A stretch of DNA of 58,206 nucleotides from an uncultured Clostridia bacterium (GTDB taxonomy: Bacteria; Bacillota; Clostridia; Oscillospirales; Ruminococcaceae), in NCBI GenBank assembly GCA_947588775.1, contig CANPZQ010000001.1:1-58206 (forward strand). Direction: 5' to 3'. The position numbers were made by a program, and so were the translations under genes. Positions 4,525-58,060 of this stretch are shown here, one piece after another (position 1 is the stretch's first letter; every line of letters begins with the position of its first letter). Below the pieces are notes generated by a model. That model had not been told where the DNA came from and searched no databases. It worked only from the letters and a program-made list of their open reading frames with translations.

Positions 4525-5294
4525 ATGTCGCGATTAGCAAAAATTGACGAAAACACACATTGCCCAATCTGCGGAAAGCACGAGCATTAGGTCAGACATG
4601 GCAAAAAAAGTCCGGCTCACAGAAATACCGTTGCAACGACTGCAATATAGACTACACACCAGAGCCGCGCCCATGGCAGTACAGCGAGGAAGTCCGCGAG
4701 CAGGCAATCAAGACATACTATTCCGGAGTAAGCGGAAGAAAGGTAGGGCTTTTGAATAATTTCAGCAAATCCAATGTCTATAATTGAATAAAAAACGAAA
4801 TAAATAATCAACAAAGTGTTGAAAATGCGTCGAAAGTTTCTGAGTTCTTCAGGAAATTTAATATTAAGCCAAAATTCTATGAACTTGACGAGCTTTATTG
4901 GTTCATAGGTAAAAAGCCGAAAACCGAAACGAAAGAAAATGTTTATTTGATGTCAATGGTTTCCCGCAAGCCGCATATTATAGCGAGTTTACAGATCGCT
5001 GAGGATAAGTCTGCTCATAGGATTCAGGAGATAGTCGACAGTGCTCCGTATGCCGATTACTACTGCACCGACGGGTATTTCGGCTATCTGAATGTCATCT
5101 ACCCCGGAAAACATATTTACAACTGTCATGACAAAAGCGATACATTTACGGTGGAAAGTGTTAACGCTGACTTACGCGACTATATACCGTTGCTTCGTCG
5201 AAGAAGCGGATGTTTTGCGAGGAGTATTGAAACCCTGAGAGCTGTCGTTAAGTTTTTGTTGACGCTTATAATAAATTCGGAATTGCAAAATTGA
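4525..5294 (+). mobile_element. IS1-family transposase, degenerate (frame change in the zinc finger plus one in-frame TGA)
   Basis: CPICGK.. (frame of ATG 4525, stops at 4588) continues in another frame as ..SGSQKYRCNDCN. After TGA 4785-4787 the same frame reads on without stops into ELDELYWFIGKK ... YCTDGYFGY ... GKH ... TVESVNADLRDYIPLLRRRSGCFARSIETL, the IS1 InsB/DDE pattern. Confidence 0.75.
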
Positions 5295-5389
5295 TGTATC
5301 GTGAACGCTATCCTAAAGGGGACCTGCCTTTCAGGTTGGTTAATTTTCTTTAATTTTCGCGGAATGGCACTCGTTGGGAACGAAAGGCA

Positions 5390-5471
5390 GCGCGGCGAAG
5401 GGGGCGGGGGGGGGGGGTGGGTGGCGGGCAGTGGCTTTGGCGGCCGCAGAGAGCAGCCCCCTTCGCCGCGC
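5390..5471 (+). repeat. hairpin/G-core repeat unit U1
   Basis: 16-nt arms gcgcggcgaagggggc / gcccccttcgccgcgc are exact reverse complements; G-rich interior with a G12 run (5406-5417) and GGGTGGGTGGCGGGC. Confidence 0.85.
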
Positions 5472-5596
5472 GGCGGACAGCGCAAGACTTAGATGGAAGC
5501 AGGAGCTTGAGTAAAAAGGCGAAAATTTTTGCAAAGCTCCGTTATGTGCACTTCTATCCTCTAACCCTCTAACGCTCCAACCTCTAAAAGCCCAAC

Positions 5597-5644
5597 CCTC
5601 ACCCGTCCCCGCTCAGCCCCGCAAAGGGGGCTTCGGGGGACGGG
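5597..5644 (+). repeat. nested-hairpin module B, copy 1
   Basis: cctcacccgtccccgctcagccccgcaaagggggcttcgggggacggg; near-identical to the reverse complement of 14403-14445. Confidence 0.8.
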
Positions 5645-5702
5645 ATTCGGCTTGGGCCGGGGGGTTGGGCGCGCGGAGTGTTCGGGTTTCCTGCGCAACC
5701 CC

Positions 5703-5787
5703 GGCGCGGCGAATGGGGCTAATTTCCTGCGCCCACCCACCCGCCCTCCAAGGCTTCCATCTTTTTTCCCGCCCCATTCGCCGCGCC
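5703..5787 (-). repeat. hairpin/G-core repeat unit U2
   Basis: arms ggcgcggcgaatgggg / ccccattcgccgcgcc exact complements; interior tttcctgcgcccacccacccgccc (G-core on minus strand). Confidence 0.85.
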
Positions 5788-5808
5788 TTCACCATTATCA
5801 GCCGGCCA

Positions 5809-5891
5809 GCGCGGCGGAAAAAGCGGTCAAAACTCACGAAACCCTCGTGGGCGGGCGGGTGGGACCAACGCACCAGCTTTTTCCGCCGCGC
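5809..5891 (+). repeat. hairpin/G-core repeat unit U3
   Basis: arms gcgcggcggaaaaagc / gctttttccgccgcgc exact complements; interior gtgggcgggcgggtggg. Confidence 0.85.
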
Positions 5892-6101
5892 GGTCCTCAA
5901 CACTCCCAAAAAATCACCCCGACTCCCACAAAGCCTCCACATATTACTATACTTTCCGTATAACACATCCAAAATATTACTCTTAGTCCCACCGCTCCCA
6001 TATACAAATAGTAATATCGCTCCCAACTATTCCCCATCGTCAACTTCCTCCACACACAAAATCCCCCGGCCGCGCCTCATCGCACGCCCGGGGAAACAAA
6101 A

Positions 6102-7532
6102 TCAATCCTTCGCCCTTTTAATCTCAAACCAGAACGTCGAGCCCTTGCCGACCTCGCTCTGAACGCCGAAGCGGCGGCCGTGGAGCCTCAGAATTTCCTT
6201 GACAATCGATAGCCCGAGGCCGGTTCCGACAACGTCGCGCTTTGTCCGCTCGTCGCGGTAGTAGCGGTCGAATATCAGCGGAAGCTTGTCCCGCTCGATT
6301 CCTACGCCGAAGTCGACAACCTCAATCCTCACAACCGTATCGAAATTCCGCTGGCGGATAATAATTTTCCGCGAATCGCCGGAATAGTTCACCGCGTTGT
6401 TGATGAAGTTGTAAAGAACCTGCGCAAGACGCGCCTCGTCGCCCTCGCAGATTACGTCGCCGTCCGACTCGACCGAAAATTCATATCCCTGCTGCTCCGC
6501 AAGGAGCTGATACCTCGAAAGCGCGTCGCGTATGAATTCCCCGACCGAAAACTGCCTGCAATCGAGCTGAATGCTGCCGTTCTGAAGCTTTGAAAGCTCC
6601 AAAAGGTTTGAAACAAGCTCCGAAAGCCTGTCCGCCTCGTCGATTATTACGCCAAGGTGCTCCGCCCGCTTTTCGGGATTGTCCCCCGAAAGGTCGCGAA
6701 TCATCTCGGCATACGCCTTAATCATCGTCAGCGGCGTTCTTAGGTCGTGGGAAACGTTCGCGATAAGGTCGTTTCGGAGGCTGTCGACCTTTGATATTTC
6801 GGAAGCGGCATAGTTCAGCGCGTCGGAGAGCTCGTCTATTTCGGCATATCCCCCGCCCTCGAAGCGGGTGGTATAATCCCCCGAGGCGAGCCTGTCCGCC
6901 GATTCGGTGATGTGCTTGAAGGGCCGCGAGAGCCTGTTTGAAAGCATCAGCGAAATCAGAAGAGCCATAAAGAATGTCATCAGCGAGATAAATATAAGCT
7001 GCTCCTTAATTACCTCGACCGCGGGGCCGATAGGCTCCATCGATGCGTTTATAAACAGGTAGCAGTCGCCGTCGAGCAGCCCTCCGTAGAGGTACTCGGT
7101 GGTATGAAATCTCGGATTCGTCGTAACAGAGAGGAATCTGTGGTCCTCGCTGGTCTGAACCTCGTTCCGGTAGCCGAAAAGCCGTATTCCGCCCTCCTGC
7201 GTAAGGGCCGAGTATCCGCCCATGAAATCCGCACTCATAATCGGGTCGCCGTTCGCGCGGGTGATGACAATCGTCATCGTGTTGTTATAGGCCAAATCCT
7301 CGATAAGCGTGCGGCTGTCCAGGGGGCTGTCGCCGTCGAAGTCGGAGGAAATCGCCGCGACGATTTTTATTATCTTCGCGCGGGTCGACGCCTCATAGTA
7401 TTTATCGAGGGTGAAAACCTGAAAGAACCACACAAGAAAGAGTATCGCCCCGGTAAAGACGGCGAAATACACCCAGATGGTGGAGCGCACCGAGAGTGTG
7501 CGTTTTTTCTTTTCGCTATTTGATGTTGTCAA
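6102..7532 (-). CDS. two-component sensor histidine kinase (2 TM, HAMP, HisKA, HATPase)
   Basis: H-box SHDLRTPLT, N-box NFINNAVNY, G-boxes DFGVGI and GTGLGLSIV; 17-nt overlap with the regulator gene. Confidence 0.9.
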   Translation of the reverse strand: MTTSNSEKKKRTLSVRSTIWVYFAVFTGAILFLVWFFQVFTLDKYYEASTRAKIIKIVAAISSDFDGDSPLDSRTLIEDLAYNNTMTIVITRANGDPIMSADFMGGYSALTQEGGIRLFGYRNEVQTSEDHRFLSVTTNPRFHTTEYLYGGLLDGDCYLFINASMEPIGPAVEVIKEQLIFISLMTFFMALLISLMLSNRLSRPFKHITESADRLASGDYTTRFEGGGYAEIDELSDALNYAASEISKVDSLRNDLIANVSHDLRTPLTMIKAYAEMIRDLSGDNPEKRAEHLGVIIDEADRLSELVSNLLELSKLQNGSIQLDCRQFSVGEFIRDALSRYQLLAEQQGYEFSVESDGDVICEGDEARLAQVLYNFINNAVNYSGDSRKIIIRQRNFDTVVRIEVVDFGVGIERDKLPLIFDRYYRDERTKRDVVGTGLGLSIVKEILRLHGRRFGVQSEVGKGSTFWFEIKRAKD

Positions 7533-8350: not shown

Positions 8351-11170
8351 TTAGTCCTCGCCGAGCTTGAGGGCCTTGTTGATGTTAATCTGCTTAATCA
8401 GCCTCGCGATAACGATGAAACCGACGACAAGCATTACAAGGACTATTACATAGAGCTTGATATAGTCGCTTCTCTGGGAAACAACCTTGAAGGGCGGCAC
8501 CTGGTCGGTGACGTTGTAGAGGACCTGGAAGAGCGGGACGAATATATCCGAAGCGATTCCGCCGATTATAATCGAGAGGAAGATTGAAACCCCCGAAACC
8601 AGCAGCTGCTCGTATACAATCATCGAGATGATTTCCCTGAAGGACATACCCATCGCCCTTAAGATACCGAACTGAAGGGTTCTGCCCTTGATTGAGAGTA
8701 TCCAGTAAATAAGGAAGCCGATGAAGCACATCGCCATAATCGTTATGAACCCGAGGGTGAGCGCGCCGTTTACGCCCTGTAAGACGGCGTCGGTTTTCGA
8801 CGCAATAATAAGCTGGGAGGCGACGTCCATTCTCGTCGCGACGATTCCGTTGTCGGTCGCGGCCTGGTAGAACTCGGCGACGTCAGCTTTATCCTCCATC
8901 GAGAGCCAAACCTGATACGGCTCGGTAATCGTCATTATGCTGACGTAGTCGTAGTTTAGGATAATGAAGTCCTGGTAGTCGCCCTGAGAGTTCTTCTCGT
9001 AGGGGTTCATGCTCGGCCAGTAGTCGACAATCGCGACGACGGTCGTTTCAAACCAGTTGTTTCTCGCCCACTTTACCTCAACGACGTCGCCGAGGTTTAC
9101 GCCCTTCTTATCGGCGTAGGAGCGGGAGATAATCGCGCCGTCCTGACATTCGCCGAGAGCGTTGATGTAGTAGTTTATATGGACCGGCAGAAGGTCGGAG
9201 CGGAACCATGCGACCTGGGCGAACTGGTCGGGAATAATCGCCATCGCCACGCAGTCGGTCTGGTTGGAGTCGTTATAGCGCATCTGCACCATGTCGCGCT
9301 TGAATACCGGAGTCGCGAGCTTTACGCCGGGGAGCGTCGAATAACGCTCAAATTCCGGCTCGGTATACTGGGTGGTCGAGGTTTCCTCCCCGGCCTCCTC
9401 GTCGTATACCTTTACCCTGCTTGTTTTCCACGCCTCCTCGATAACCGCGTCCGCGCCGAGGTTATAGCGGATTCTCTCCTCGGTGTTGCGGTTGATGGCG
9501 CGGGCGGTGTTCGCCGAGAAAATTCCGAGAGCGACGGTTAAAATCAGGAATATCATTATGAACTTTTCCCGTCCCGTCGAGGAGCGGCCGATATTGTTTA
9601 AGGAAATATACGCCGCCGGCGACCAGTGCTTTCGGCCGATGTTGTAGACAAGCCTTATGAAGTAGGGGTAGATTCTTACGCATAAAAGTGCCGCGCCGAG
9701 AATAAATACCGTAGAAGCCGCGAACATCAGCGGGTTCATCGTCGAGGAAGTGTCGACGATTCCCTGACGAATAAGGTTGTCGTTGGTGCGGTTATACCAC
9801 CAGAGCCAGAGCACCGGCAGAACGATGCAGATAACGTCGAGGAAGGAGCGCTGCCAGAAGGGCTTTTTCTGCATATGCGCCTTCGACTGCTTATGCGCGA
9901 CGATTGAAACCCGCGAGGCGGGGATAATAGGCACAAGGGTAGTTATGAAGAATACCCCGACCGCCGCAACCGCGTAGCCGAACGCCGTAAGCGAGAGCTT
10001 CGCGTGAAGAGCGGGGCGGTTTACAAATTCCAAAAATCCGTTTGAAACGCCCAAGACGTTGCATAGCCCGAGCCCCACGAACGGCCCGACGAGTGCCGAA
10101 ACCGCGCCGAGAATAAGTGTTTCGTAGGCGTAGATTCTTAGTATCTGCCAAGCCGACGCGCCGCGCGATTTAAGCATCGCGATTTCGTTTCTCTCGGATT
10201 CGATATTGAGCTGAGATACCATAAACAGGTAGAATATCAGCATCAGAATAACCGGAATGTCGAGCATCAGCATTATATACTTGAGCGAAGCCGCTTTCGA
10301 GGCGTATTCCTCAAGGACCTCCTGCGCGGGGACCTCGAAGGTCGTCGCCTCTTCCTTATACTGCTCGAGCTGCGAGGCGAACTGGTTGCGGACATGCTCA
10401 ATAACGTTCATGTCCATGTGCTGATAGTCGATTATGAAGCGGCAGTCGACCTGGTTGAGGTTTACGATGCCGGTGAAGATGATTTCGTCGGTGAGGGTTA
10501 TGAAGTCGGTGAAGAAGGTGTTGTCATAGTTAGAAAGCCCCTCCGACCAGTAGGTGTCGGTTTCGGACGAGGGCTCGAAAACGCCGACAATCTTTATTTT
10601 CAGGGTATCCTCGGTAACTCTGTCGAGAATGTTCTTTACCTCGTAAACCTGATTGGTGACGAGCTGGGTGAGCTGCAAGGCCTTCTCGGTGCAGATTACC
10701 TCGTAAACGCCGTCGGCGTCCTTCTCGGAGCTGAACATTCTTCCCTGAATGATATTGATGTGGTCGCCTATATCCGTCATTCCGCCCAGCTTCACCATCG
10801 CGGGGTCGCCCTCGGTTTCAAAGTTCGTGACGTAAAGGTACGAATCCGAGGTGAACGCCTTATAGGTTTCATAAGGCACGAACAGGTCGTTGAAACGGTT
10901 CGCCGCGCGGGCGTAGACGTTGTTTACGTTGGCACGCTGGTTTTTCGCGCTCGTGCCGCTTACGAGCGTCTTGGAAACGGCGTAAACGCCGGGATATACC
11001 CCTTTTTCCTCCTGATACGCCTGCATATCCTTAATCAGCATTCGCTGTAAGGACGCGTGCATATATATCGGGATTGTACTCGTCATGGCGGTGGCCATGA
11101 TAAATCCGATAAGAAGACAGATTACCATCCATTTGGTATTGCGCATCTTTCGGAGTAGAAGTGTCAACAT
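8351..11170 (-). CDS. ABC transporter permease with two FtsX-type domains and two large extracytoplasmic domains (MacB-type, 939 aa)
   Basis: TM1, ~270-aa loop, 3 TM, further TMs, second large loop, 3 C-terminal TM; GGAGGA RBS before ATG 11170. Confidence 0.8.
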   Translation of the reverse strand: MLTLLLRKMRNTKWMVICLLIGFIMATAMTSTIPIYMHASLQRMLIKDMQAYQEEKGVYPGVYAVSKTLVSGTSAKNQRANVNNVYARAANRFNDLFVPYETYKAFTSDSYLYVTNFETEGDPAMVKLGGMTDIGDHINIIQGRMFSSEKDADGVYEVICTEKALQLTQLVTNQVYEVKNILDRVTEDTLKIKIVGVFEPSSETDTYWSEGLSNYDNTFFTDFITLTDEIIFTGIVNLNQVDCRFIIDYQHMDMNVIEHVRNQFASQLEQYKEEATTFEVPAQEVLEEYASKAASLKYIMLMLDIPVILMLIFYLFMVSQLNIESERNEIAMLKSRGASAWQILRIYAYETLILGAVSALVGPFVGLGLCNVLGVSNGFLEFVNRPALHAKLSLTAFGYAVAAVGVFFITTLVPIIPASRVSIVAHKQSKAHMQKKPFWQRSFLDVICIVLPVLWLWWYNRTNDNLIRQGIVDTSSTMNPLMFAASTVFILGAALLCVRIYPYFIRLVYNIGRKHWSPAAYISLNNIGRSSTGREKFIMIFLILTVALGIFSANTARAINRNTEERIRYNLGADAVIEEAWKTSRVKVYDEEAGEETSTTQYTEPEFERYSTLPGVKLATPVFKRDMVQMRYNDSNQTDCVAMAIIPDQFAQVAWFRSDLLPVHINYYINALGECQDGAIISRSYADKKGVNLGDVVEVKWARNNWFETTVVAIVDYWPSMNPYEKNSQGDYQDFIILNYDYVSIMTITEPYQVWLSMEDKADVAEFYQAATDNGIVATRMDVASQLIIASKTDAVLQGVNGALTLGFITIMAMCFIGFLIYWILSIKGRTLQFGILRAMGMSFREIISMIVYEQLLVSGVSIFLSIIIGGIASDIFVPLFQVLYNVTDQVPPFKVVSQRSDYIKLYVIVLVMLVVGFIVIARLIKQININKALKLGED

Positions 11171-13961: not shown

Positions 13962-14302
13962 GGTGCGGAAAAGAAAAATTCAAAAGTTTTCGTCAACCTT
14001 TTTTCAAAAGGTTGCGGGGTCAAGGGGCGGAGCCCCTTGTCGCGGCCCGCAGGCCGCGAAATCTCTCATACTCCCCAAAGCGCAGGAGGGGGAGCCAAGA
14101 AATCAGTCCGGCGGACTGTTTTTGCGGGGGAACCCTCGCCTACGACAGCGGAACAAAACTCTTTGAGGACGAGCGGTCGGTCATTTATGACCGCGAAGTC
14201 CGAAAAGCAAGTTTTGTCGCCGGCGTTGGTTTCCACAACAAAGAAGGCTCTTTTACCCATGCTTGTTCGTTTTGCGAAGCCCGGGTTGAGGCACTTTGTC
14301 AG

Positions 14303-14389
14303 GGGGCGCGGGGACGGAGCGGGAACAAATCGCTAAGGTGGGAGGGCGGGCGGGTGGGGCCAACCCAACCAGCGCAGTCCCCGCGCCCC
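14303..14389 (+). repeat. hairpin/G-core repeat unit U4
   Basis: arms ggggcgcggggac / gtccccgcgcccc exact complements; interior gggagggcgggcgggtgggg. Confidence 0.8.
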
Positions 14390-14402
14390 CATTCGCGACG
14401 AA

Positions 14403-14445
14403 CCCGTCCCCCGAAGCCCAACGGGCTGAGCGGGGATGGGTGAGG
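14403..14445 (-). repeat. nested-hairpin module B, copy 2 (inverted relative to 5597-5644)
   Basis: reverse complement reads cctcacccatccccgctcagcccgttgggcttcgggggacggg. Confidence 0.8.
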
Positions 14446-38606: not shown

Positions 38607-38965
38607 TTTATATCCTCCTTCTGATAGATTGCGGACTCGGGGCGCAGCCGCCTTTTGTCCGTAAATAAAAAGCACAGTAAGGCCGAAACGGCGGTTCCGG
38701 CCTTTAGGTCAGCGCATTCCTATATATTATAGTCTTGTCCGCAAAAAAAGTCAATAGAAAAACCAAAAAAATCCGGGGATTGGGGAATTTTTTGGGGGCG
38801 CAGGGTTATGAAGCGGGGAGAGAGGGGGCGAAGCCCGGCCGGCCCGGAGGGACGGCCCCCGCGGCCGGAGGCCGCGGGCGTCGGCCGCGTATGCGGCCGA
38901 CAGGGGCTTCGCCCTAAGCCCCCGCATTTTGCCGAGGCCGGGTAAGAGCCGCCGCCAAAGCCCGC

Positions 38966-41335: not shown

Positions 41336-41650
41336 GTTGGGGGTGGGGGGATGTGAGGGAGGATTTATAGGGAGTGGCCGAAACGGACACATTTAAGTGA
41401 ATAACGTCTTGCGAAAAGTAGCAAGTATCGGTATATAATCAGACGTATAGCTTCTATAATGCGTTTGGCTTGGACACTCATGATTGTATACAAGCCGCTG
41501 TACAAATGGGGGAGGCCTGAACCGAATCCCACCCTCTCTCCGCCTGCGGAGTTTTAGCGAGGTTAAGGTTTGGGGAGCCCCCTCTCCCCAAGGGGAGGGG
41601 GAGCATAGCCTTGCCAAATATCGCCCTCCCCAACCTCTCCGCTGACCCCC

Positions 41651-41735
41651 GCGCGGCGGGAAAAGCTGCCTCTCTGCGCCCCACCCACCCACCCCCCCGC
41701 CATTTCCCGCCCTTCCCCCGCTTTTCCCGCCGCGC
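41651..41735 (-). repeat. hairpin/G-core repeat unit U5
   Basis: arms gcgcggcgggaaaagc / gcttttcccgccgcgc exact complements; interior ctctgcgccccacccacccaccccccc. Confidence 0.85.
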
Positions 41736-44970: not shown

Positions 44971-45051
44971 GCGCGGGGAAGGAGCGGGGGGAGGAGGGAA
45001 GGGTGGGGTGGGCGGGCGGGTGGGCGCAGGAAAGGAGCTCCTTCCCCGCGC
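44971..45051 (+). repeat. hairpin/G-core repeat unit U6
   Basis: arms gcgcggggaaggagc / gctccttccccgcgc exact complements; interior gggtggggtgggcgggcgggtgggcgcagg. Confidence 0.85.
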
Positions 45052-45117
45052 GGGGATTTAGCGGGAGCCCTTGTAGAGAGGAGCCTGCGAAGCCCGGGGC
45101 TTTGCGGCCCGTTGACC

Positions 45118-45200
45118 GGCGCGGGAGGCCTGCTCCCTTCGCGGCTTCCATGGGCTCCCGCGCCCCACCCTCCCACCCCTCCCCGCAGTCCTCCCGCGCC
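45118..45200 (-). repeat. hairpin/G-core repeat unit U7
   Basis: arms ggcgcgggaggcctgc / gcagtcctcccgcgcc (15 of 16 paired); interior ccccaccctcccacccctcccc. Confidence 0.8.
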
Positions 45201-48486: not shown

Positions 48487-48583
48487 GCGCGGGGAAGGAG
48501 CGGGGGGGAGAGAGAAAGGTGGGTGGGCGGGCGGGTGGGGGGGGGGGGGGGGGGGGCGCAGGAAAAGAGCTCCTTCCCCGCGC
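48487..48583 (+). repeat. hairpin/G-core repeat unit U8 (contains G20)
   Basis: arms gcgcggggaaggagc / gctccttccccgcgc exact complements; interior ggtgggtgggcgggcgggtG(20)cgcagg. Confidence 0.85.
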
Positions 48584-48650
48584 GGGGGCTTGCGCGGAAA
48601 ATTTCGTTCCGGCAGCCTGCGAAAGCCCGGGGCTTTGCGGCACTTTGACC

Positions 48651-48732
48651 GGCGCGGGAGGCCTGCTCCTTTCGCGGCTGCCGTAGGCTCCCGCGTCCCA
48701 CCCTCCCACCCCTCCCGCAGTCCTCCCGCGCC
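48651..48732 (-). repeat. hairpin/G-core repeat unit U9
   Basis: arms ggcgcgggaggcctgc / gcagtcctcccgcgcc (15 of 16 paired); near-copy of U7. Confidence 0.8.
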
Positions 48733-48752: not shown

Positions 48753-48832
48753 GCGCGGCGGCGGAGCGTGGGGAAAGCGCGAAGCTTGGGCGGGCGGGTG
48801 GGTGGGCGCAGGGAGCAGCTCCTTCGCCGCGC
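48753..48832 (+). repeat. hairpin/G-core repeat unit U10 (arms imperfect)
   Basis: arms gcgcggcggcggagc / gctccttcgccgcgc (13 of 15 paired); interior gggcgggcgggtgggtgggcgcagg. Confidence 0.7.
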
Positions 48833-48872: not shown

Positions 48873-48953
48873 GCGCGGCGCGGGGAGCTCCTTTCGCGGC
48901 TTTCATCGGCGCCCGGGTCCCACCCGCCCGCCCCACCGCTCCCCGCGCCGCGC
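48873..48953 (-). repeat. hairpin/G-core repeat unit U11
   Basis: arms gcgcggcgcggggagc / gctccccgcgccgcgc exact complements; interior cccacccgcccgcccc. Confidence 0.85.
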
Positions 48954-49028
48954 TTCTCCCCTGCCCCTTTTCTCCTCATACCTCTCTCCTCACACCCCAC
49001 CCGGTTAGCCCCTGCTAACTACAATTCT

Positions 49029-49056
49029 ATTTTATTCGATTTTATGCGTTTGTCAA
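49029..49056 (-). promoter_or_regulatory. candidate feo operon promoter
   Basis: minus strand TTGACA (49056-49051), 16 nt, TAAAAT (49034-49029); I saw no other promoter-like sequence between it and feoA. Confidence 0.4.
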
Positions 49057-49223
49057 TAGCTTTTATTCGCATTCCGGCAAATTCGGAAGTGTGTACAAAA
49101 ACAGTTAGCCGCAGCTAACTTCAATTGGGTAAAAAGACAATGTGAATCCGGCGGCACTGCATACATTGTTATAACTGTCATATTCTCGCCTTTTTTGGCA
49201 GTATCAAATTTTTGTATCAAAAC

Positions 49224-57004: not shown

Positions 57005-57087
57005 GCGCGGCGGAAAAAGCTGCTTTCTGCGCCCCACCCGCCCGCCCATGAAGATTTCGCGCTATTTCCCCGCTTTTTCCGCCGCGC
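57005..57087 (-). repeat. hairpin/G-core repeat unit U12
   Basis: arms gcgcggcggaaaaagc / gctttttccgccgcgc (identical to the U3 arms); interior tttctgcgccccacccgcccgccc. Confidence 0.85.
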
Positions 57088-57109: not shown

Positions 57110-57193
57110 GGCGCGGCAAATGGGGCGGGAGGTCAGCGGGAAACCTTAGCGGGCGGGCGGGTGGGCGCAGGCACCAGCCCCATTTGCCGCGCC
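57110..57193 (+). repeat. hairpin/G-core repeat unit U13
   Basis: arms ggcgcggcaaatgggg / ccccatttgccgcgcc exact complements; interior gcgggcgggcgggtgggcgcagg. Confidence 0.85.
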
Positions 57194-57301: not shown

Positions 57302-57874
57302 TTAAATCTGCTTTGCAAGCACTCTCGTGCGGTAGTAGGGGACCGCGGCGAAGGTGCCGAGGATAATCAGGTCGATTATCATTACGGCGATTACGAGAAT
57401 GCCGTTCAGGAACATCGACCAGAGCCATTCGTCGGAAATCGGGAGGCCAATCATCGCGGACATGCCGGAAAATTCTGCGGGCATGTACTCGCCCCAGAGG
57501 AGGCCGCCCGAGAGGGTGAGCGAAACCCATCTTCCGAACGAGCCGAGCATCGTTCCCCAGAGCCAGCCGAGCTTCTTTCCGGCCGCAAAGCCGCAGAGGA
57601 AGATGAGGGTGTAGGCGACGACGTAGTCAAGAAGCATTGACTGCCAGCTGATTGAGATGCCGCCGCCGAGGACATACTGCAAAACGCCGTTCACGAAGCA
57701 GCAGAGCAGGCTGTACTTCGGTCCCCAGCGCAGGCAGTAGATTAGAATCGGAACCAGCGCGAAGTCGATTGAGCCGCCGAGCGGGAAGCGGTAGAGGCGG
57801 ATGTAGCCGAGGACGGTCGCAATCGCAATCATGATTGCGCCCTCGACGAGTGCCAGAAGCTTTTTGTTTTTCAC
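57302..57874 (-). CDS. thiT: ECF-transporter S component, thiamine-specific (ThiT-like)
   Basis: 190 aa, 6 TM, GTG start; directly downstream of a TPP riboswitch. Confidence 0.75.
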   Translation of the reverse strand: MKNKKLLALVEGAIMIAIATVLGYIRLYRFPLGGSIDFALVPILIYCLRWGPKYSLLCCFVNGVLQYVLGGGISISWQSMLLDYVVAYTLIFLCGFAAGKKLGWLWGTMLGSFGRWVSLTLSGGLLWGEYMPAEFSGMSAMIGLPISDEWLWSMFLNGILVIAVMIIDLIILGTFAAVPYYRTRVLAKQI

Positions 57875-57963
57875 GGAAATAACCGTCCTTTCTTAATTCG
57901 GGCATAAAAAACGCCCTGAAATGGTGTCATTCCTGAGCGAAATTAACGGTAATGAAGCAAAAA

Positions 57964-58048
57964 CTCCCTACGTCGGTATTAACCGCATCAGGTCATAGGG
58001 TCAAAGAGAACATCTTTATCTCAACACGTCGCTGCGTGTCCCCCTGTT
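57964..58048 (-). promoter_or_regulatory. TPP (THI-box) riboswitch
   Basis: minus strand cagggggacacg..gtgttGAGAtaa..ACCCtatgACCTGATgcGGTTAATACCgaCGTAGGGAg matches the THI element consensus. Confidence 0.85.
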
Positions 58049-58060
58049 TTGACGAGGAAT

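Follow-up and report, generated by a model that had tools for sequence, protein, structure and literature searches.

The chromosomal contig CANPZQ010000001.1 (assembly GCA_947588775.1) from an uncultured gut Oscillospiraceae bacterium was analysed over 58,206 nt, and this whole stretch is referred to here as the window. It contained 13 copies (U1 to U13) of an intergenic repeat unit of 80–97 nt, in which a GC-clamped stem of 15–17 bp closes a G/A-rich loop of approximately 50 nt. The inner part of the stem differed from copy to copy while the pairing of the two arms was kept, and all of the loops carried a G-quadruplex motif, such that one unit of 80 nt can join an invariant clamp, a variable but paired stem segment and an invariant quadruplex motif. 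On balance, we regard the units as probably a non-autonomous element of the kind represented by repetitive extragenic palindromic (REP) sequences, bacterial interspersed mosaic elements (BIMEs) and REPINs, with selection acting on a hairpin of single-stranded DNA.

Anatomy of the units

A direct reading of 4800-6500 and an exhaustive scan for perfect inverted repeats lying 40–120 nt apart were used to delimit the units (Table 1), 10 of the 13 having perfect arms of 14–17 nt. The pattern GCGCGG-N55-85-CCGCGC matched the window 18 times compared to 1.3 expected matches, which excludes a chance origin. The outer GCGCGG(CG) of the stem was invariant and its innermost GC was conserved; the inner 7–9 bp were variable and were purine-rich on the 5′ arm. 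In the type A layout the first arm was followed by a G/A-rich stretch, ..GCGNGAAA.CTT.., the quadruplex motif, CGCAG.. and the second arm. The type B layout (U7, U9 and U11) consisted of the first arm, the quadruplex motif, ..GAAAGCCGCGAAAGGA, the second arm and a conserved 3′ extension. The 5′ flank of the units was mostly A or AG and the 3′ flank was GG(TC/GGG). A preliminary description of this DNA had listed the arms, and every one of its arm sequences was reproduced base for base, as were its three imperfect units: U7 and U9 each had one A.G mismatch and U10 had two adjacent mismatches (G.T and C.T).

Table 1. Positions of the repeat units and of associated features (window coordinates unless a related locus is named)
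Feature	Position	Strand	Description
IS1-family transposase	4560-4787 and 4803-5294	+	Split over two frames
U1	5390-5471	+	Arms GCGCGGCGAAGGGGGC / GCCCCCTTCGCCGCGC, 16 nt, perfect; loop with G12 run (5406-5417) and degenerate G-tract motif
U2	5703-5787	-	17-nt perfect arms GGCGCGGCGAATGGGGC; quadruplex motif on minus strand; paralogue of U13
U3	5809-5891	+	16-nt perfect arms GCGCGGCGGAAAAAGC, same as U12; loop with GGGCGGGCGGGTGGG
U4	14302-14390	+	Arms GGGGGCGCGGGGAC perfect over 14 nt, then diverging; quadruplex motif in loop; flanked by ABC permease gene and GH26 gene
U5	41651-41735	-	16-nt perfect arms GCGCGGCGGGAAAAGC; directly past terminator of 732-aa gene
U6 (type A)	44971-45051	+	15-nt perfect arms GCGCGGGGAAGGAGC; 3′ untranslated region of feoB operon, upstream of terminator 44918-44906
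U6–U7 tail-to-tail linker	45052-45117		U7-side half conserved in U8–U9 composite (48584-48650)
U7 (type B)	45118-45200	-	Arms GCGCGGGAGG(A/C)CTGC, one A.G mismatch; starts 4 nt past stop codon of 60-aa FeoB-associated gene (45386-45204, minus strand)
U8 (type A)	48487-48583	+	Arms identical to U6; ends 28 nt upstream of feoA start codon; quadruplex motif in loop, then G20 run (48537-48556)
U9 (type B)	48651-48732	-	Paralogue of U7, same A.G mismatch
U10 (type A)	48753-48832	+	15-nt arms, two adjacent mismatches
U11 (type B)	48873-48953	-	16-nt perfect arms GCGCGGCGCGGGGAGC; quadruplex motif directly 3′ of 5′ arm
feoA promoter region	49004-49118	-	TTGACA-16-TAAAAT at 49056-49029 (11/12 matches), two TTAGCnnnnGCTAAC palindromes; upstream edge of U8–U11 insertion
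U12	57005-57087	-	16-nt perfect arms, same as U3; loop 69% identical to U3 loop
U13	57110-57193	+	17-nt perfect arms GGCGCGGCAAATGGGGC; one compensated pair relative to U2
Rabbit-gut element, L067	6086-6159	-	Short GC arms adjoining the quadruplex motif of the units
Rabbit-gut element, L078	5850-5925		Short GC arms adjoining the quadruplex motif of the units

The conserved 3′ extension of U7 and U9 contained a near-perfect palindrome, AAGCCCGGGGCTT (45090-45102 and 48620-48635), and a related sequence, CCGCAAAGCCCCG, was found after U13. Short G/C-rich palindromes also lay beside units at 5597-5688, 14367-14445 and 41530-41620, examples being CCCGTCCCCG..AGCCCCGCAAAGGGGGCT..CGGGGGACGGG, the motif GGGATTCGG.T..GGCC, which occurred twice, and CCCCCTCCCCTTGGGGAGAGGGGG; the first of these regions (5597-5688) matched 14445-14367 at 72%. 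The G20 run of U8, which is in the feoA 5′ untranslated region (UTR), and the G12 run of U1 are likely to slip during replication and are hard to assemble, and their lengths may be unreliable or variable.

Covariation of the stem

The arms alone were aligned, indexed from their outer end, and their partners were shuffled 500 times. Pairing was found in 97.3% of the 150 stem cells compared to 77.6 ± 2.2% in the shuffles, none of which (0/500) reached the observed value, and sliding the partner by 1–3 columns reduced pairing to 41–65%. Stem positions 1–6 showed no variation; positions 7–15 were all variable (9/9), each having changed on both sides, and double changes were seen in 32 cells where 9.5 were expected. 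Only 1/150 stem cells held a G-T pair. These results bear out what the preliminary description had proposed, namely that the GCGCGG end is conserved while the distal part varies, and that base pairing rather than sequence is maintained.

The units contained 10 distinct arm pairs, for which parsimony gave a lower bound of approximately 13–14 paired events, including a paired indel that separates arms of 15 nt from arms of 16 nt; this bound is the sum over positions of the pair types minus one, and depends on how the 15- and 16-nt arms are aligned. As the pair types need this many paired events, the arm variants cannot be reduced to a few recent duplications, the scenario that the preliminary description had set against its own interpretation. 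On the quadruplex strand, the variable segment of the 5′ arm was 81% purine (59/73 positions, p = 1e-7). The unit stems were homopurine-homopyrimidine tracts whose polarity was fixed relative to the quadruplex.

Quadruplex motif in the loop

The quadruplex motif (G3N1)3G3 was present in 13/13 unit loops, its commonest form being GGGCGGGCGGGTGGG. The window had 27 matches to GGGNGGGNGGGNGGG, and every one of them fell inside the 13 units, with at least one in each unit, compared to 0.03 expected. Because this motif marks one strand, each unit has an orientation. Four G3 tracts with short loops, the sequence definition of a G-quadruplex, were found in every unit, and folding with quadruplex energies predicted for all 13 an outer stem closing a loop with a three-layer quadruplex. 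When DNA parameters were used, the outer stem was the sole robust helix (11 units were folded, and 10 of them had z-scores of -2.5 to -5.8), and the interior of the loop showed no conserved helix in these folds other than a weak GCGC...GCGC pairing. The quadruplex motif was invariant among the units while the remainder of the loop drifted. A literature search on the exact motif GGGCGGGCGGGTGGG returned aptamer papers only.

Clusters, composites and the rates of arms and loops

Most of the units lay in clusters of alternating orientation: + - + (U1–U3), + - (U6–U7), + - + - (U8–U11) and - + (U12–U13). Linkers were 21–23 nt in head-to-head and 40–68 nt in tail-to-tail arrangements, except for the 232 nt between U1 and U2, and neither orientation was favoured along the contig, with 7 units on the plus and 6 on the minus strand. 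An alignment of the clusters showed that U6-linker-U7 matches U8-linker-U9, with the homology bounded exactly at the outer arms, and that U2–U3 is a paralogue of the reverse complement of U12–U13. As these composites are duplicates, the window represents approximately 9 independent arm lineages, not 13.

Four paralogous unit pairs from the composites were used to compare rates. The arms differed at 2/124 positions, the loops at 42/202 and the linkers at 34/89. By Fisher's test the arms departed from the loops at p = 7e-8 and from the linkers at p = 4e-13, and they were more than 10 times slower than the loops. The two arm differences form one compensated pair, G-C to A-T, between U2 and U13, and the A.G mismatch common to U7 and U9 has stayed uncorrected since their duplication. 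Because the arms are slower than loops and linkers, this mismatch persists, and the clamp and inner GC are invariant, the stem is, judged from these comparisons, under purifying constraint and not merely rewritten neutrally. Neutral fold-back copying is disfavoured, since the arms would then drift about as fast as the loops. The preliminary description had offered selection on a hairpin or fold-back copying as the cause of the paired arms; the former is favoured by these rates, and the latter is retained as a possible mutational source of the paired changes only. Additionally, the hairpin looks like a feature of the DNA rather than of RNA, because G-T pairs are almost absent, both orientations occur in one transcript and no Rfam family was matched.

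Insertions in the feoAB transcript and comparison with relatives

None of the 13 units was inside a Pfam-supported gene; all were intergenic, in both orientations. Six were within the feoAB transcript: four of these followed the promoter and preceded the ribosome-binding site, and the other two followed the final stop codon and preceded the terminator. The feoA-feoA-feoB-small gene-ECF sigma neighbourhood was syntenic in relatives, and the feoA promoter, together with its two TTAGCnnnnGCTAAC palindromes, was conserved in three related genomes. In these three aligned relatives, approximately 20–25 nt separated the second TTAGCnnnnGCTAAC palindrome from the feoA start codon, whereas the feoA 5′ UTR of the window had approximately 545 extra nt, which held U8–U11. 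At the other end of the transcript, the two relatives that were read had 9–22 nt between the FeoB-associated stop codon and a conserved TTTTATATACC followed by the terminator; in the window the U7–U6 composite lay between the stop codon and the TTTTATATACC-terminator, a site that was empty in both. Judging from these alignments, the U6–U7 and U8–U11 clusters are lineage-specific insertions into the feoAB UTRs. This case shows that such elements can occupy the 5′ UTR of an iron-uptake operon with the promoter and ribosome-binding site intact.

The TTAGCnnnnGCTAAC copies were located at 49118-49104, 49018-49004 and 48189-48175 (minus strand), and also in the related locus L102 at 9300-9420. Two of them flank the feoA promoter; the third separates the two feoA genes and was seen in the window alone. 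A metal-dependent repressor probably uses this palindrome as its operator. The Cys-rich, FeoB-associated protein of 60 aa upstream of U7 ends in ..HGKCGGAAGKAR, compared to ..RGKCHGAK in relatives, and its last codons appear to have been supplied by the G-rich sequence that flanks the U7 insertion.

Relatives were sampled by fetching 15 loci through homologues of the histidine kinase encoded at 6102-7532 and of FeoB, and by taking approximately 120 kb from seven related contigs. The compared relatives had 82–91% amino acid identity in FeoB and 78–86% in the histidine kinase; the top non-self match of the latter was at 86% identity, and its named relatives were Oscillospiraceae and Ruminococcus metagenome-assembled genomes (MAGs). 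Scans with nhmmer and for hairpins and quadruplexes revealed no unit in any of the 15 loci; the approximately 120 kb had no unit and no quadruplex motif with one-base loops, although approximately 27 units would be expected at the density of the window. A covariance model (R1) run on 8 of the relative loci also found no unit, and a looser quadruplex search of the relatives, in which loops of one or two bases were allowed, gave one unrelated G-tract, in L110.

A pattern scan of genome contigs for further units gave mainly high-GC noise; among the matches listed, two rabbit-gut Oscillospiraceae MAGs (L067 and L078) had single, loosely related elements in which the quadruplex lies beside arms of 8–15 nt. 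The arms of these two elements differ yet pair, and an inner mini-hairpin co-varies (GCGGC-GAA-GCCGC versus GCGCC-GCA-GGCGC); the covariance model gave the L067 element E = 0.09. Exact look-ups of window proteins identified no contigs of the same species, and a search with the translated repeat cluster for spurious open reading frames (ORFs) on other contigs identified none. A metagenome scan for units gave two spurious high-GC contigs only, a viral scan gave nothing, and plasmid and phage collections had no blastn match to the units.

Favoured explanation and its alternatives

From the arrangement and variation of the units we infer the following scheme. Within this lineage the family would have colonised intergenic DNA, among it the UTRs of an operon that is expressed, both as single units and as composites of alternating orientation that were themselves copied. 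The selected form would be a folded single strand of DNA, as a hairpin or a cruciform, which is probably locked by the quadruplex of the G strand. Copies deficient in pairing would be at a disadvantage, whether for copying by a structure-specific enzyme or for use by the host, and because of this disadvantage single arm changes would be purged and only paired ones would survive. Intrastrand template switching at the hairpin, which a quadruplex that blocks polymerase would promote, may generate both changes of a pair at once. Template switching, a single event of which is able both to build and to mend a stem (doi 10.1101/2021.04.15.439925), is a good candidate for the source of the paired changes. 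In the GC-rich RRS repeat of Escherichia coli, a quadruplex halts polymerase and gaps remain in the lagging strand (PMC10592627); such a block with gaps could plausibly lead to the extrusion of hairpins and to template switching.

Several observations weigh against this explanation. No mobilising enzyme was found: a Pfam scan of 40 ORFs of the window gave no Y1/HUH transposase. There was no target-site duplication and no conserved cleavage tetranucleotide at the unit ends. The sample consists of only 13 copies, all from one contig, and the loops may be hypermutable through their G runs and slippage, which would inflate the contrast between arms and loops. The arms of U3 and U12 are identical, but their loops are no closer to each other than those of random unit pairs, so that simple descent with selection is an incomplete explanation. 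The purine bias of the 5′ arm is also not explained by selection for pairing alone.

The complementarity of the arms could instead be neutral, if template switching or hairpin mismatch correction copied one arm onto the other and so perfected the palindrome with no selection on its structure. Such a mechanism is documented (doi 10.1101/2021.04.15.439925, and the quasipalindrome literature), and a quadruplex with a long stem is the type of structure that stalls polymerase (PMC10592627). It would agree with the strictly Watson-Crick pairing, with the adjacent mismatches of U10, as multi-base events predict, and with the large arm diversity of a seemingly young family that is absent from relatives. 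Neutral conversion predicts, however, that arms would drift similarly to loops and linkers, contrary to the rates given above; the mismatch that U7 and U9 have both kept since their duplication speaks against it too, and the fixed outer 6–8 bp and inner GC would require a constraint on sequence in addition. We therefore consider this possibility doubtful. A further possibility, which we hold to be unlikely, is a self-renewing element whose loop quadruplex would trap the extruded hairpin on the G strand and stall the polymerase, whose arm would be rewritten from the other arm by intrastrand template switching, and whose structure would at the same time be mobilised by an activity in Clostridia other than RAYT. 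If true, the stem would be hypervariable yet always complementary, and the units would found a class of bacterial mobile DNA of a new type, with structure, mutagenesis and spread coupled to one another.

REP elements affect mRNA stability, and the presence of six units inside the feoAB transcript would suit hairpins that act in UTRs as mRNA stabilisers, RNase III sites or RNA-quadruplex regulators. This is improbable, as both orientations are found in one transcript, with half of the copies showing the C-rich strand, G-U pairs are nearly absent, U5 is located past a terminator, the compared relatives have no units at either feoAB site, and a search of Rfam relaxed to E ≤ 1 gave nothing but generic hairpins below threshold. 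A structural role for the host, in which the units would shape replication, topology or recombination and be spread by recombination, would fit their BIME-like alternating arrays with regular linkers and the invariance of the quadruplex while other loop parts drift, and has a precedent in RRS (PMC10592627). We rate it as very improbable: the units are absent from the nearest relatives and are hence not needed by the clade, their insertion in front of the iron-uptake genes, in the 5′ UTR, has an opportunistic look, and the contig shows no bias in their orientation. Finally, the arms could be the terminal inverted repeats of an ordinary miniature inverted-repeat transposable element (MITE), bound as a duplex by a DDE transposase such as that of the neighbouring IS1-family element, the gene of which is 96 nt from U1. 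The units resemble MITEs in being small, in having inverted termini, in their intergenic spread and in being polymorphic for insertion when set against relatives. A transposase reads sequence, however, and a single consensus would be expected where 9/15 stem positions vary; no unit has a target-site duplication, and the IS1-like element has no GCGCGG-type ends and lies near one cluster only, which makes this origin scarcely credible.

Neighbouring features and other candidates

The genes of the window are housekeeping and transport genes, and its G+C content is 51–59%. The two halves of the IS1-family gene matched NCBIfam NF033558 with E values of 2.5e-8 and 4.6e-8, both under the full-length cut-off, and no clear terminal inverted repeats of this element were found. 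Its frame split may be a programmed frameshift or the result of decay. The preliminary description had placed U1–U3 immediately next to a decayed IS1 copy; a split IS1 does neighbour this cluster, but decay is only one possible reading of it, and the link is positional, its ends being unrelated to the arms.

Other candidate identities were rejected. The neighbouring IS1, the only insertion sequence in the window, was considered as the parent of a MITE, but there was no target duplication and its ends are unrelated to the GCGCGGCG arms. An integron attC site does not fit: the core is GCGCGG/CCGCGC and not RYYYAAC...GTTRRRY, the stems are perfect, and the window holds no cassettes or integrase. 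Intrinsic terminators have loops of 3–8 nt compared to approximately 50 nt here, there is no T run 3′ of the stem, and real terminators are present beside units. CRISPR was ruled out on anatomy, and a search for Rfam RNA families gave nothing relevant at the gathering score or at E ≤ 1. An intrastrand triplex, raised by the purine-rich arm and loop, belongs to a class with loops of 1–6 nt (PMC4666352), and no consistent mirror repeat was seen.

A thiamine pyrophosphate (TPP) riboswitch (Rfam RF00059, 68.6 bits) was identified at 57948-58055 on the minus strand, preceding the gene for a thiamine transporter of the ThiT type (57302-57874); U12–U13 lies directly downstream of this gene. A second GC-rich repeat at 38826-38914 has arms GGGCGAAGCCC / GGGCTTCGCCC with several nested hairpins within, and, unlike the quadruplex family, is also present in a relative (L102, 2788-2882).

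Comparison with known repeat systems

Proteobacteria are the best-known hosts of REP, BIME and REPIN hairpin repeats, and how these repeats spread is still debated. In the literature within reach of our search, no REP-like elements were documented in the gut Clostridia lineage. The BIMEs of Enterobacteria bind gyrase and IHF. They resemble the units in having two subtypes that alternate in orientation and two classes of linker; their REPs, however, are imperfect palindromes of approximately 35 nt with short loops, and have no sequence similarity to the units. The GTAG-type tetranucleotide that is conserved at the foot of REP palindromes was not seen at the foot of the unit stems, and GTAG was near one unit only.

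The REPINs of Pseudomonas fluorescens SBW25 have two conserved inverted ends of approximately 16 nt and a less conserved spacer, are approximately 80–110 nt long and strictly extragenic, and occur in many copies and in clusters (PMC3116915). The units are likewise high in copy number and extragenic (13 in 58 kb), with inverted ends (arms of 15–17 nt) and a spacer of approximately 50 nt that would form one hairpin, and with compensatory changes that keep this hairpin. Compensatory changes on both sides have been described as common in REPIN hairpins (PMC3116915), and the paired stem changes are therefore not new in kind. In contrast to REPINs, the units have no small palindrome in each end, their co-varying part is in the arm and not in the spacer, the loop is unpaired and carries a quadruplex motif, and the host is a gut bacterium of the class Clostridia. 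The RAYT (Y1/HUH) gene of REPIN systems, which is usually flanked by the repeats, was not found among 40 ORFs scanned in this single 58-kb contig, and membership of the units in the REP-RAYT family is not established.

In attC sites a conserved outer core is combined with a variable but complementary inner stem and a variable centre, and it is the folded single strand that is functional. The units share the fixed outer core, the variable yet complementary inner stem and the variable central region, but their stems are perfect, with no extrahelical bases, and they abut in alternating orientation without cassettes. RRS and the Neisseria pilE quadruplex (PMC10592627) offer a further likeness, as a GC-rich repeat with a quadruplex on one strand that is able to block polymerase and leave gaps. 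RRS consists of two fixed 222-bp copies at conserved positions, whereas the units are numerous, lineage-specific and closed by a stem. Quasipalindrome template switching, in the models of Ripley and Lovett, perfects imperfect inverted repeats and gives apparently compensatory changes in one event; it is, however, a mutational mechanism and not an element family, and alone it leaves arms more than 10-fold slower than loops unexplained.

The unit family could thus serve as a compact natural test of whether stem complementarity is due to selection on a folded strand or to template-switch mutagenesis, and, if a mobilising enzyme were found, structure-dependent transposition of miniature elements would be extended to a new bacterial class. 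What sets the units apart from REP, BIME and REPIN repeats is the combination of a hypervariable but always paired stem segment with an invariant quadruplex in a long loop.

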